Part shown: positions 8,579 to 14,057 of the stretch, one piece after another
How positions within the stretch are numbered: position 1 is the first letter of the stretch
Layout: each line of letters begins with the position of its first letter
Source: a virus
Virus genome (UHGV): UHGV-0369625
Strand: one strand, 5' to 3'
DNA length: 14,057 nt
The notes under the pieces: model-generated
Databases searched by the model: none
The model's input: only the letters and a program-made list of their open reading frames with translations
Told to the model about the DNA's origin: nothing
Translations under genes and position numbers: made by a program

Positions 8579-9265
8579 TCACTCCTTCTCTTCTTTTCCG
8601 TAGTGGAGTTGGCCAATTTTGATAAGAGGGCGTCCCTGAGATTTGCGGTGTAGATTGGTATCGCGCAGAGAATACACACAGCCACAATATTCCTGCTGAT
8701 AGAATTTTTCGCGCTTGCTGATTTCAATCATACGGGACGAGCCGCCCTGCTTGCGCCAGTTATAATCCCAGTACACCATACCCGGATAATGCGCAACAGC
8801 TCGCCGCCCACACTCGTTAACCTGCTGCATATTTTTCCAGCGTGAAATGCCCAGTGAACTGCTGATCACACTGAAACCATTTTCAGCAGCGTACAACGCT
8901 GTCCGCTCAAAACGCATGTCAAAACACATGGTACAACGGATCCCCCTCTCAGGCTCCCATTCCATTCCTTTGGCACGTTCAAACCAGTTGTCTGTGTCGT
9001 AATCAGCATCAATAAATGGCACGCCGTGTTGTTCAGCAAAGCGAATATTTTCATCCTTACGAATTAAATACTCTTTCTGAGGATGAATGTTCGGGTTGTA
9101 GAAAAAGATGGTATAGTCGATTCCCGAGGCCTGAAGCGCCTCCATCACTTCACCGGAACATGGAGCACAGCAAGAGTGCAGTAGTAGTTTGTTTGCCCCG
9201 TTTGGGAGCTCCAATTTAGGCCGTTTGAAATCAGCAATAGTCATAAATATTTTTATTGGGGTCAT
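8579..9265 (-). CDS. QueH-like epoxyqueuosine reductase (DUF208 family), 228 aa
   Basis: Motifs [29 protein letters not shown] and EYCGCVYSL match what I recall as QueH hallmarks. ATG 9263-9265 (no clear SD); alternative ATG 9244. Stop TGA 8579-8581. Confidence 0.75.
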
Positions 9266-11404: not shown

Positions 11405-12367
11405 TCACCCCCTGAATCCCGGCGGTATTTCAGTGTCCGGTTCAGAAATGTGATTCACGCAACGCTGCGCAGGCGAACGCCCCAGGCGGATAACCAGTTC
11501 ATCCCATTTTTCCCGGAGTTTTGCCGGACTCATGATGTTTTTTACCCAGAACGAATCCCGCTGGAGACGCCCAAACATTTCACAAATTTGTCTGTGAGTT
11601 CTGCCATCCAGCATCCGCATTGTGCGAACGTCATTGGCCCATGCTGTCCAGTTGGGTTCTTTCGGTCTAGTGATCTCGCCATCATAGCTGGCCGCCTGCT
11701 CGTAAAGACTCACGATTCGTCCCCAGATCCACTGTGCGCACACCAAATCTTCCTGACTTCCCCACTGGCGTTTTTTCGCACTGAACACAACCGCGTCAGG
11801 GTGTCGGGTTAAAAAATCCTGTTCAGCCGTCTGCGGGTCCGGTTGCGAAGCGTCCGGACAAGAAGATCTTTTATCTGACGGATCAGGTTTTAATACTGAC
11901 GGATCGGGGTCAATCATCGCCCCCCTAATCGGCAGTTTTTTATCAACAGTTGATCCATCAAAATTTGACGGGTCAACCGTTGAGGGGTCAATATTTGACG
12001 GGTCAACTGTTAACGGGTCATTTTTTGCCGGGCTAATTTTTCTTTTCGGTTTATATGACTCACGCGCCGCCGCCGCAGCTGCTTCGAGTTTTTCCACATT
12101 AAGCCGATAGATATTGCTTACATTACGCCCACCGACCTTACGCTCTTCCTTCGTCAGCCAGCCCTCTTTCGCCAGTTCTGCAATAGCCGATTTCACTGTG
12201 GATTCACTTCTTGCACCGATCTGACGCCGGATAGTTTCAATGGCAGGCCATGACACGCCCTCGTCATTGCTGTAGTCTGCAAGACGGGCCATAACCGCCA
12301 CCCTGGATAAGATCATGCCGGTGAAGGCGCACCCTTCCCAGACAAGACCATGAAGCTTGCTGCTCAT
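11405..12367 (-). CDS. Replication initiator (O-like / YdaU-like) with N-terminal HTH and internal origin iterons, 320 aa
   Basis: ATG 12365-12367; the track start at 12382 is GTG. N-terminal MARLADYSNDEGVSWPAIETIRRQIG... HTH-like. Repetitive peptide DPSNIDPSTVDPSNFDGSTVD is encoded by the DNA iterons. Confidence 0.85.
   Translation of the reverse strand: MSSKLHGLVWEGCAFTGMILSRVAVMARLADYSNDEGVSWPAIETIRRQIGARSESTVKSAIAELAKEGWLTKEERKVGGRNVSNIYRLNVEKLEAAAAAARESYKPKRKISPAKNDPLTVDPSNIDPSTVDPSNFDGSTVDKKLPIRGAMIDPDPSVLKPDPSDKRSSCPDASQPDPQTAEQDFLTRHPDAVVFSAKKRQWGSQEDLVCAQWIWGRIVSLYEQAASYDGEITRPKEPNWTAWANDVRTMRMLDGRTHRQICEMFGRLQRDSFWVKNIMSPAKLREKWDELVIRLGRSPAQRCVNHISEPDTEIPPGFRG
11897..12022. repeat. 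Origin-of-replication iterons (at least 4 direct repeats of about 13 bp at 15-bp spacing), followed by an AT-rich tract to about 12060
   Basis: TTGACGGGTCAAC (11965-11977), TTGAGGGGTCAAT (11980-11992), TTGACGGGTCAAC (11995-12007), TTAACGGGTCATT (12010-12022), plus a degenerate copy GGGGTCAAT at 11906-11914; then ttttttgccgggctaatttttcttttcggtttat. Confidence 0.75.
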
Positions 12368-12389
12368 AAAACCCCCGAACACCGTGCTT

Positions 12390-12815
12390 TTAGTGCATCA
12401 CCACAGCATTCCCTGCCGGGCCGCCGCGATTCATCTGGTCATACAAAACAACCGCTGACGCAACAAAATCATCGACATCCTTCACCAGCCGATCCCTCCG
12501 TTCGACGATCTCACGGTAATATTCAGAACTGTGGCTGCGCATACGGGCCACCAGCAAAGGCGGCATCGCCTTTTCGATCGCCGGTAACAGAGCCTGCATT
12601 TTTTCAACAGCATCAGGGGTGTCTTTCTCTACCCAGCGGAAAATTTTCTGGGTATTGCGAGCCAGGGCTTCCGGATGGCTGTCGTCATACAGTTCTGGGA
12701 ACGTCATACCCAACTCAAAATAAGCCTGGGTTATTCCAGCTGCTGGAACTTTTTCGCCATCAGGACGCGCCCAGGCATTCATCGCCATGCGGATGTGTTC
12801 ATGCTTGATTTTCAT
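12390..12815 (-). CDS. YdaT-like protein (reported functional analogue of lambda CII), 141 aa
   Basis: ATG 12813-12815 with AGGAG SD; lies between cro-like and O-like genes as ydaT does in Rac; identity from recall. Confidence 0.75.
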   Translation of the reverse strand: MKIKHEHIRMAMNAWARPDGEKVPAAGITQAYFELGMTFPELYDDSHPEALARNTQKIFRWVEKDTPDAVEKMQALLPAIEKAMPPLLVARMRSHSSEYYREIVERRDRLVKDVDDFVASAVVLYDQMNRGGPAGNAVVMH

Positions 12816-13080
12816 GAATCAAGCTCCTAGAAAGTGGTTGTGTTAACGTTTTGGTATCTTCCAGCTCGGGCCAAATATTCATCCAATCAAAAGGCCTTAG
12901 TTGCTGACGTGTAACTTCACCATTACTGGCTCGCTCAATAAGGACACATAACGATGCCCCTAACACTTGACCTTTACTCAATGCCTTTCTTAGATAACCG
13001 ATGCTGGTACCACACTCGCATGCAAACATACGCTGTTCATCTGACGAAAGAGAATTGAGAAATATTCTTAATTCTTCCAT
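12799..13080 (-). CDS. Cro-like / YdaS-like HTH regulator, 93 aa
   Basis: ATG 13078-13080 with AAGGAG SD; motif IERASNGEVTRQQLRP.DW resembles YdaS; first gene of the rightward operon, divergent from the repressor. Confidence 0.8.
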   Translation of the reverse strand: MEELRIFLNSLSSDEQRMFACECGTSIGYLRKALSKGQVLGASLCVLIERASNGEVTRQQLRPFDWMNIWPELEDTKTLTQPLSRSLIHENQA

Positions 13081-13104
13081 AGCTACTCCTTAGTAAACAC
13101 AGCA

Positions 13105-13152
13105 AAGAATACCCACAGGTAAACAAAAGTCAATACCCACAGGTTGTTTACC
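13105..13152. promoter_or_regulatory. Candidate OR operator/promoter region between cro-like and repressor genes
   Basis: Direct repeat AATACCCACAGGT at 13108-13120 and 13132-13144, with GTAAAC/GTTTAC half-site-like elements. Candidate -35 TTGACT and -10 on the minus strand for cro; candidate -35 TTTACC / -10 TATTAT on the plus strand ending just before the repressor ATG (leaderless). Confidence 0.5.
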
Positions 13153-13180
13153 TTGCGGTAATCGCATCTATTATTTACCT

Positions 13181-13600
13181 ATGGACAAATATGAATTTAG
13201 ACGACAGCAACTCATCAAAATTCGTGATGAGAAATGCGATGGTAAAGCGGTTAACGTGGCCAGAAAGATCGGGCGCGAGCCTTCTTATGTATCAAGAATG
13301 TTGTACCCAGAGGGGAAAAAGGGAAAAAAACGGATCGCTGATGATATGGTGGAGATTATCGAAGAGTCCTTTGGGTTACCCCGGGGATGGATGGATGGTA
13401 TCGTTTCATCATCAACGAACACAGCCTCCAGTTATGAAACAAGGGTTCTAACGCCACGACAACGTATTTTTTTAGATCTCTTAGACGAACTGCCAGAAAG
13501 TGAAGCGGATAAATTATTAAAAACTCTTGAAGAGAAAAAACAGTATTACAATATGATCTACGAAGAAATCCGTAAAAAGAAAGCACAAAACGCATCATAG
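13181..13600 (+). CDS. Putative prophage repressor (CI-like HTH protein), 139 aa
   Basis: Divergent from the cro-like gene; HTH-like segment KAVNVARKIGREPSYVSRMLY; flanked on both sides by operator-like repeats; no SD upstream of ATG 13181. Confidence 0.7.
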   Translation: MDKYEFRRQQLIKIRDEKCDGKAVNVARKIGREPSYVSRMLYPEGKKGKKRIADDMVEIIEESFGLPRGWMDGIVSSSTNTASSYETRVLTPRQRIFLDLLDELPESEADKLLKTLEEKKQYYNMIYEEIRKKKAQNAS

Positions 13601-13640
13601 CTCACCAAACAACTAGTCACCAGTTAAGACACCGCAAAAA

Positions 13641-13684
13641 TTTACCCATGGGTATTTACTTTTTAAATACCTATGGGTATCCTT
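13641..13684. promoter_or_regulatory. Candidate OL operator/promoter: two palindromic sites
   Basis: TACCCATGGGTA (13643-13654, perfect 12-bp palindrome) and ATACCTATGGGTAT (13667-13680). Both share the TACCCA/TGGGTA half-sites seen at OR. Candidate -35 TTTACT / -10 TATCCT overlapping. Confidence 0.5.
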
Positions 13685-13865
13685 CTTTTCATACCAACCC
13701 ACCCCGCCCCACAGAATGCAGGGCAATACTTCGAGTTACCAGGCAGTGGTCAGGGGTTAAGTAGCCAGCCCGAGGCGTAAGAACATGACGGCAGGGTTCA
13801 ACTTTAATAACTATGCAGCAGGTTTTTGTTCCGCTACCCCGGCGTTAAGGGGAAATGAGGTCAGC

Positions 13866-14021
13866 ATGGATACTATCGATCTTGGCAACAACGAATCTCT
13901 GGTGTACGGCGTGTTTCCCAACCAGGACGGCACGTTCACCGCGATGACGTATACCAAAAGCAAAACGTTTAAAACCGAAAATGGTGCCCGTCGCTGGCTG
14001 GAAAGAAACTCAGGTGAGTGA
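13866..14021 (+). CDS. YdaF-like small protein, 51 aa; possible longer form from ATG 13785 (78 aa)
   Basis: ATG 13866 preceded by GAGG SD; MDTIDLGNNESLVYGVFPNQDGTFTAMTYTKSKTFKTENGARRWLERNSGE matches Rac YdaF as recalled. An upstream in-frame ATG at 13785 also has a GAGG-like SD. Confidence 0.6.
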   Translation: MDTIDLGNNESLVYGVFPNQDGTFTAMTYTKSKTFKTENGARRWLERNSGE

Positions 14022-14022
14022 T

Positions 14023-14057
14023 ATGGATTTCGACACAATCATGGAAAAGGCTTACGA
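14023..14057 (+). CDS. 5' end of a further leftward-operon gene (MDFDTIMEKAY...), truncated by the window edge
   Basis: ATG 14023 immediately after the preceding stop, with AGGTGA SD; only 11 codons visible. Confidence 0.35.
   Translation, partial: MDFDTIMEKAY

Follow-up and report, generated by a model that had tools for sequence, protein, structure and literature searches.

In phage lambda, the starts of the divergent promoters PR and PRM lie about 82 bp apart, the operator OR2 lies at about −42 of PRM, and the cI message is the classical leaderless message. Here we describe a switch that resembles this one in the virus genome UHGV-0369625, within a stretch of 14,057 nucleotides that we call the window, where a rightward open reading frame (ORF) of 139 amino acids (aa), which RefSeq names "hypothetical protein", encodes the predicted repressor. 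Very probably, positions 12390-14021 of the window form the immunity region of a lambda-like Escherichia coli prophage that operates as a whole according to the model set out below, in which the repressor would bind repeated palindromes on both sides of its own gene. We conclude that the locus is a conventional lambdoid immunity switch, whose predicted binding specificity differs from those of DicA, RacR and PaaR2; its design is ordinary and already known, and it contains no mechanism beyond those of lambda, Qin and CP-933P.

The closest experimentally characterised architecture is that of CP-933P (Sp12), in which a short uncleavable repressor, PaaR2, is combined with divergent PR and PRM promoters in a 97-100-bp intergenic region, another set of operators at PL and a Cro of the YdaS type, and in which repressor binding at OR and OL has been shown (PMC8630535, PMC9986795). 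The window has the same arrangement of genes and of predicted promoters and operator sets. The leaderless start of paaR2 was demonstrated by 5′ RACE and N-terminal protein sequencing (PMC8630535), whereas the corresponding start in the window is predicted. The two loci also differ in their repeats, which follow the consensus GTTTAGTAA in CP-933P and TACC-N4-GGTA in the window, and in the paaA2-parE2 toxin-antitoxin genes, which follow the repressor gene in CP-933P and are absent from the window. In Qin, the repressor DicA is likewise short and without a cleavage site, has operators at the divergent promoters and at the dicB-operon promoter, and represses dicBp until the antirepressor Rem relieves repression (PMC10448788). 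The window repressor gene, like dicA, lies upstream of and co-directional with ydfA-ydfB-ydfC-dicF-dicB, and its operators are predicted at the equivalent promoters. However, the Cro analogue is DicC in Qin and an mEp043/YdaS-like protein in the window, where a Rem-like antirepressor was not identified. In Gifsy-1 and -3, the repressors GfoR and GfhR, of about 136 aa, are uncleaved and are inactivated by small antirepressors; they have different operators and the same antirepressor sensitivity (PMC3121763), which parallels the modularity of DNA-binding and C-terminal domains in the window repressor.

The closest relative that shares the DNA-binding specificity module is phage mEp043 (NC_019706), for which published operator mapping was not found in the literature searched. 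Its recognition-helix segment, REPSYVSRMLYPEG, is identical to that of the window repressor, its operators have the core and layout of those in the window, three of them between cI and cro and two at the annotated PL, and its −10 likewise ends 6 nt before an MDKYE start. In contrast, mEp043 CI is a 228-aa protein with a self-cleaving S24 C-terminal domain, whereas the window repressor has 139 aa and a DicA-type helical C-terminus; mEp043 also encodes a CII of the lambda type and, downstream of PL, the antiterminator N, whereas the window has YdaT and ydfABC-dicB. Compared with lambda, the window shares divergent PR and PRM promoters, three operators with an O1-O2 spacing of 24 bp, an O2 near −42 of PRM, and the placement of the repressor gene, which is flanked by OR and OL and reads in the same direction as PL. 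It differs in having a 12-bp operator core instead of 17-bp operators, an O2-O3 spacing of 15 bp, two sites instead of three at OL, a repressor without S24, and YdaT in place of CII, and in lacking rexAB and a separate terminator before OL. Judged by sequence similarity, the locus combines an mEp043-like Cro, a YdaT and YdaT operator like those of CP-933P, and a Qin-like downstream operon (ydfABC-dicB).

Predicted operators on both sides of the repressor gene

The leftward 93-aa ORF, which begins at 13080, and the rightward 139-aa ORF are separated by exactly 100 bp (13081-13180), the length given in the original prediction. The repeat unit is a 12-bp palindrome, TACC-N4-GGTA, which spans about 16-18 bp with its TTT/AAA flanks and has the extended form TTTACC-YRYR-GGTAAA. 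A motif search across the prophage and related phages had been suggested as a check on that prediction; in the window, the palindrome has four exact copies against 0.09 expected, a count reached in 0 of 200 shuffles. All four fall within two regulatory regions, and none occurs elsewhere in the window. When one mismatch was allowed, the sole extra site in these regions was 13134-13145, which ends GGTT; the four one-mismatch sites outside them, against 2.8 expected, are at the level of chance. With 13134-13145, which differs from the motif by one base, the intergenic region has three sites (beginning at 13110, 13134 and 13149), and two more (13643 and 13668) follow the repressor stop codon. The repressor gene and the five predicted operators are as follows.

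13181-13600, + strand: repressor gene, 139 aa, CI analogue (ORF; PHROG 5736 "transcriptional regulator", E 6e-70)
13110-13121, no strand assigned: predicted operator O1, TACCCACAGGTA, in the PR spacer and overlapping the PR −10
13134-13145, no strand assigned: predicted operator O2, TACCCACAGGTT, one mismatch, abutting the PR −35 and centred at about −41.5 from the predicted PRM start
13149-13160, no strand assigned: predicted operator O3, TACCTTGCGGTA, overlapping the PRM −35 and spacer
13643-13654, no strand assigned: predicted operator OL2, perfect palindrome TACCCATGGGTA, abutting the PL −35
13668-13679, no strand assigned: predicted operator OL1, TACCTATGGGTA, in the PL spacer and overlapping the PL −10

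The original prediction had described the intergenic repeats as two direct copies of AATACCCACAGGT. Both copies are exact (13108-13120 and 13132-13144), but the unit is the 12-bp palindrome rather than a 13-bp direct repeat, and the third intergenic site, O3, had been overlooked. The GTAAAC and GTTTAC elements that it listed are present, but they are mostly the outer flanks of the palindromes (GGTAAAC at 13118-13124 and GTTTACC at 13146-13152) rather than separate elements, and the GTAAAC at 13093-13098 is part of no site conserved in relatives. Both sites that it placed past the repressor stop codon were recovered, the perfect palindrome as OL2 and ATACCTATGGGTAT at 13667-13680. The central 4 bp have the pattern Y-R-Y-R at O1, at O2 and in the OL pair; O3 departs from it, which could be a basis for differential affinity. 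Two further candidates were rejected. A possible fourth site, TACCTATGGACA at 13176-13187, spans the repressor ATG and resembles OL1 with two mismatches; it is not conserved in relatives and probably reflects chance. A TACT-N4-AGTA at 13084-13095, near the cro Shine-Dalgarno sequence, was dropped because it is also not conserved.

To place these sites among relatives, we assembled 27 loci that encode relatives of the repressor N-terminal domain (N-domain), with one genome per species, together with phages mEp043 and CharmingMan; two loci (L032 and L033, with 30% and 38% identity) were left out as too distant, and 28 loci were compared, the window counted in. Their host range covers Enterobacterales, Aeromonas, and the betaproteobacteria Ferrovum and a Hydrogenophilaceae metagenome-assembled genome. 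The 28 loci, 150 kb in total, contain 93 exact motifs against 2.3 expected. A site near −72/−73 from the MDKYE start codon was present in 26 of them, and most have further sites near −47/−48, usually ending GGTT, and −32/−33; the two exceptions to the −72/−73 site, Izhakiella and Orbus (L029 and L031), still have a site near −48/−49. Among 26 scored loci, O1 is exact at −72/−73 in 23 and O3 is exact at −32/−33 in 21, and 24 loci have, downstream of the repressor gene, two sites that are 24-27 bp apart. An alignment of 19 intergenic regions showed invariant columns at TACC and GGTA of O1, CAATACC of O2, TTTACC and GGTA of O3, and the ATG, with the right half of O2 variable.

We also compared the distribution of the motif with that of Cro. 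A Cro homolog was found in 21 of the 28 loci. Five Klebsiella loci (L010, L012 and L014-L016) have neither the Cro homolog nor O2, in whose place stands TTTGCTATATTTT, and they retain O1, in most cases O3, and all or most of the OL pair. Because these Cro-less loci retain the sites, the motif tracks the repressor N-domain and not Cro, and it is present with any type of C-terminal domain on the repressor. The proposal in the original prediction that one protein binds at both OR and OL is supported by comparison: in 26 of the 28 loci, Cro-less ones among them, the gene has sites on both sides, and in the predicted recognition helix S35, Y36, R39 and M40 do not vary across 28 homologs.

Domains of the repressor

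The window repressor is a mosaic of an mEp043-type DNA-binding domain and a DicA/PaaR2-type helical C-terminal domain, as judged from its alignments, because its N-domain matches S24-type proteins and mEp043 CI while its C-terminal part matches DicA and PaaR2. The mEp043-type helix-turn-helix (HTH) domain occupies residues 1-73 and is followed by a disordered linker (77-87) and the C-terminal helices (89-138). In a database search, residues 1-75 showed 65-82% identity to the N-terminal domains of hundreds of S24 (LexA-type) proteins of 220-242 aa, among which is the mEp043 cI product, with 65% identity over residues 1-86; the MDKYE...LPRGWMDG-type N-domain of this group is present in the window repressor. 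The Klebsiella loci without Cro carry the same N-domain fused to a different S24 subtype. At the other end of the protein, BLASTP against K-12 DicA aligned only residues 89-134, with 33% identity over 46 aa, and the DicA family NF007257 matched only residues 86-136 (E 2e-5; 24.5 bits against a cutoff of 101), which places the protein outside full-length membership. Identity to PaaR2 was 23% over 90 aa, which include the motif LTxxQxxLLxxFxxLPExE, and RacR could not be aligned significantly (best E-value 2.3). Short proteins with the DicA-type C-terminus are found at full length in E. coli, Salmonella (85% identity), and Serratia, Yersinia and Arsenophonus (53-58% identity).

A Pfam search of the repressor returned no hit, and hence no S24 peptidase (PF00717), and a sequence search of the PDB returned nothing significant; weak matches to the ADAR Z-alpha domain (E about 0.08) were set aside as chance. 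The AlphaFold model (pLDDT 85.7) has four N-terminal helices with the HTH at residues 23-30 and 34-40, the linker at 77-87, and two C-terminal helices modelled with confidence (pLDDT about 90). The structure that it matches best is Rep, the repressor in the Rep-Ant complex of a Salmonella temperate phage (PDB 5d50), and other Xre-type HTH proteins come next. The protein family is annotated as CI repressor in several sources, and the gene occupies the DicA position between divergent operons with the N-domain of annotated CI repressors, in agreement with the original prediction of an immunity switch. That prediction had also held that the repressor differs from DicA and RacR and may define a distinct immunity type. 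The difference applies to the DNA-binding domain and to RacR, to which there is no similarity, but not to the C-terminal domain, which is DicA-like; likewise, the specificity does appear to differ from those of DicA and RacR, but it has precedent in mEp043 and in many S24-type repressors that have this domain and these operators.

Some E. coli proteins (P0010 and P0013-P0019) begin MNLDDSNSS..., which corresponds to a +1-frame ORF from the ATG at 13191 (13191-13451), and rejoin the repressor frame near G/A homopolymer runs, GGGGAAAAAGGGAAAAAAAC, at about 13311-13334. These alleles have probably undergone frameshifts that eliminate the DNA-binding domain.

Predicted promoters and the proposed switch

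A consensus promoter scan of 12900-14057 returned only two sigma-70-like sites, the divergent PRM and PR, and PL was read by hand.

13147-13174, + strand: PRM, predicted repressor promoter (−35 TTTACC at 13147-13152, 16-nt spacer, −10 TATTAT at 13169-13174; promoter scan)
13106-13133, − strand: PR, predicted promoter of cro, ydaT and the replication genes (−35 TTGACT at 13133-13128, 16-nt spacer, −10 TATTCT at 13111-13106)
13656-13683, + strand: PL, predicted promoter of ydfABC-dicB-exo-xis-int and analogue of dicBp (−35 TTTACT at 13656-13661, 16-nt spacer, −10 TATCCT at 13678-13683)

The PR −35 comes directly after O2 and its −10 opens with the last TA of O1, a layout that is the same in relatives. 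PL aligns with PR as a paralogous element (inverted repeats I1 and I2), and the same design is found in 24 loci. PR is predicted to start near 13099 and PRM at 13181, on the A of the ATG; the distance between them, about 82 bp, is that of lambda.

Because the PRM −10 ends 6 nt before the repressor ATG, the predicted start coincides with the A of the ATG and the message would be leaderless. The 25 nt before this ATG contain no GGAG, AGGA or GAGG, i.e., no Shine-Dalgarno sequence; the ORF has no earlier in-frame start, and its MDKYE N-terminus is invariant among homologs. The original prediction had correctly noted both the TATTAT just before the ATG and the missing Shine-Dalgarno sequence, and its proposal of a leaderless repressor is supported by the promoter scan, by the paaR2 precedent and by the position of the hexamer in relatives. 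In about 24 of 27 of these, a TAnnnT-type hexamer of varying sequence (TAGAAT, TAAAAT, TATGAT and others) ends 6-7 nt before the ATG, with an invariant TTTACC 16-17 nt upstream of it. In phage CharmingMan (L003, 2992-3001) and in L020-L022, the start as annotated or as it appears (MKAMDKYE or similar) falls within the predicted −10 (TAGAATG); translation more likely begins, without a leader, at the conserved MDKYE ATG, which lies 9 nt downstream.

The genes and sites on the cro side of the switch, and the end of the repressor message, involve the following features.

12799-13080, − strand: Cro-like gene, 93 aa (residues 1-73 mEp043-Cro-like; phrog_35)
12390-12815, − strand: YdaT gene, CII analogue (Pfam YdaT_toxin; PHROG CII-like activator)
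12805-12822, no strand assigned: YdaT high-affinity operator TTGATT-N6-AATCAA (TTGATTTTCATGAATCAA), an exact copy across the cro 3′ end and the ydaT start
13643-13689, + strand: candidate intrinsic terminator, a 16-bp hairpin that the two OL palindromes would form in RNA, with the U-rich UCCUUCUUUU after it (terminator scan)

The Cro-like protein is 73% identical to mEp043 Cro over residues 1-73 and 36% identical to YdaS of Sp12/CP-933P, and its match to the Pfam YdaS model is below the cutoff. YdaT is about 96% identical to the crystallised CP-933P YdaT (PDB 8bt1), whose operator was defined by footprinting at the corresponding position in CP-933P (PMC9986795) and which activates a PRE-type promoter there (PMC8630535). 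DNA homology to Sp12/CP-933P of O157:H7 begins exactly at 12805-12822 and runs leftward through ydaT; because the homology starts there, this position, on the evidence of sequence comparison, marks a mosaic or recombination junction within the cro 3′ end. By analogy with CP-933P, it is also the probable site of a YdaT-activated establishment promoter, and a long-leader, PRE-type transcript activated by YdaT probably exists alongside the leaderless maintenance transcript, as in lambda and CP-933P. A consensus scan of 12300-12950 found no PRE-like promoter, a result that is uninformative because activator-dependent promoters fit the consensus poorly. At the other end of the gene, the OL hairpin has a predicted RNA folding energy of −23.4 kcal/mol (z-score −5.3). 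Because no other terminator candidate was found between the repressor stop codon and PL, we speculate that this hairpin may terminate the PRM transcript.

In the model that we propose, the 139-aa repressor would bind the TACC-N4-GGTA cores as a dimer or higher oligomer. On O1 it would cover the PR spacer and −10, and on O2 it would abut the PR −35; since the sites overlap or abut elements of both PR and PL, repressor at O1/O2 or at OL1/OL2 would occlude RNA polymerase. Occupancy of O1 and O2 would shut off cro, ydaT and the replication genes, and the OL pair, which has the same geometry on PL, would shut off ydfABC-dicF-dicB-exo-xis-int. PRM would transcribe the repressor gene as a leaderless message, which O2-bound repressor could activate from about −41.5, comparable to lambda CI at OR2. 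Occupancy of O3 would either repress PRM, which would constitute negative autoregulation, or reflect a preferred Cro site. YdaT would probably drive the establishment promoter through its exact operator at the cro/ydaT junction. Finally, because the repressor has no S24 peptidase and its C-terminal domain is of the DicA/PaaR2 type, induction would probably occur by an antirepressor and not by RecA-stimulated self-cleavage, as with the antirepressor-sensitive repressors of Qin and Gifsy (PMC10448788, PMC3121763).

Several observations weigh against this model or parts of it. Neither a LexA box, for which the window was searched, nor an antirepressor among the 10 large ORFs scanned against Pfam was found, so the route of induction is unsupported within the window, which is only part of a prophage. 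The predicted PL is weak, with 8 of 12 consensus matches, and was left uncalled because it falls below the scan threshold. A literature search for six operator strings yielded unrelated papers only. Lastly, the distant relative from Orbus sasakiae (L031), which has only one upstream operator, has a Shine-Dalgarno-like GGGGGG before its ATG (AAGGGGGG, upstream of 2501); its repressor gene is probably not leaderless, judging from this sequence, and leaderless expression is therefore not universal in the family.

Rival readings and prophage setting

We considered whether TACC-N4-GGTA is instead bound mainly or only by the Cro-like protein, with the 139-aa protein recognising something else or not acting as the maintenance repressor. 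Cro binds the same operators in lambdoid switches, and Cro homologs accompany the motif in three quarters of the loci (21 of 28). However, the five Klebsiella loci, Izhakiella and Orbus, which are without this Cro family, keep the motif beside the N-domain gene and downstream of it, a conserved N-domain is accompanied by the motif regardless of the type of C-terminal domain, and several sources label the protein family CI repressor, which together make binding mainly or only by Cro quite unlikely. A different challenge concerns the repressor message, which could come only from an upstream promoter, such as a YdaT-dependent PRE-type promoter in cro/ydaT, and carry a long leader, in which case the TATTAT would be fortuitous. 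The exact YdaT operator at 12805-12822 and the activation of PRE by YdaT in CP-933P (PMC8630535) are consistent with such transcripts and suggest that they probably exist too. As the only source of the message, we regard an upstream promoter as unlikely: the TAnnnT hexamer 6-7 nt before the ATG and the TTTACC 16-17 nt upstream of it recur in relatives, PRM is one of only two promoter-like sites in 12900-14057, and a long-leader message would also be without a Shine-Dalgarno sequence, since none lies upstream of the ATG. Furthermore, a leaderless start is experimental for the analogous paaR2 (PMC8630535), and the Gifsy-3 gfhR promoter lies between two in-frame AUGs (PMC3121763).

The short repressor could also be a decayed remnant, i.e., an S24-type CI stripped of its peptidase in a cryptic prophage, non-functional or partly functional and surrounded by relic sites. 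Most N-domain homologs are indeed S24-type proteins of 220-242 aa, and frameshifted variants of the repressor gene occur in some E. coli. Set against this, the short DicA-type form is kept at full length from E. coli and Salmonella to Yersinia, Serratia and Arsenophonus, its C-terminal helices are confidently modelled and common to the functional DicA and PaaR2, many E. coli genomes have the region in identical form, and the five operators are all intact, so that decay seems very unlikely.

The locus also suggests a broader proposal, which we advance only tentatively and regard as doubtful in its entirety: that one DNA-binding domain and operator set serves both self-cleaving S24-type and uncleavable DicA-type repressors, that the window repressor may cross-recognise mEp043-like operators, and that the OL pair may double as an intrinsic terminator of the leaderless repressor transcript. 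If this were true, the host would be immune to inducible mEp043-like phages in a manner that SOS induction cannot lift, the repressor would answer to a different, antirepressor-based induction signal, and the OL sites would act both as DNA operator and as RNA terminator. The analysis provides a testable operator consensus and promoter map for the repressor, defines a widespread CI DNA-binding domain without a Pfam model, and offers a clear natural case of modular repressor exchange, in which one DNA-binding specificity is combined with alternative induction modules. From its predicted sites, the repressor would control the dicB/dicF cell-division inhibitor operon in these strains, which would make it relevant to prophage-linked filamentation.

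Many E. coli chromosomes match the final 1.36 kb of the window (12700-14057) with 100% identity, and of 5426 complete E. coli genomes, 822 contain at least 80% of this segment. In the RefSeq annotation of one of the genomes with identical DNA, the genes leftward of the intergenic region are a "transcriptional regulator", a YdaT-family protein, an HTH replication protein and DUF977, and those rightward are the 139-aa ORF, ydfA, ydfB, ydfC, dicB, DUF1482, exonuclease, excisionase and integrase. The 139-aa gene thus takes the place of dicA in a Qin-type layout, with the divergent cro/ydaT/replication operon on its other side. The first gene of the PL operon is as follows.

13866-14021, + strand: ydfA (Pfam DUF1391; RefSeq annotation of identical DNA)

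A transfer RNA (tRNA) scan of the window returned none. Its remaining genes encode a Q antiterminator, DUF968, a QueH homolog, DnaC-like and O-like replication proteins, and a lysis cassette. The QueH (epoxyqueuosine reductase) homolog, at 8579-9265 on the − strand (Pfam E 1e-65), lies amid prophage early-right genes, an unusual position for such cargo.

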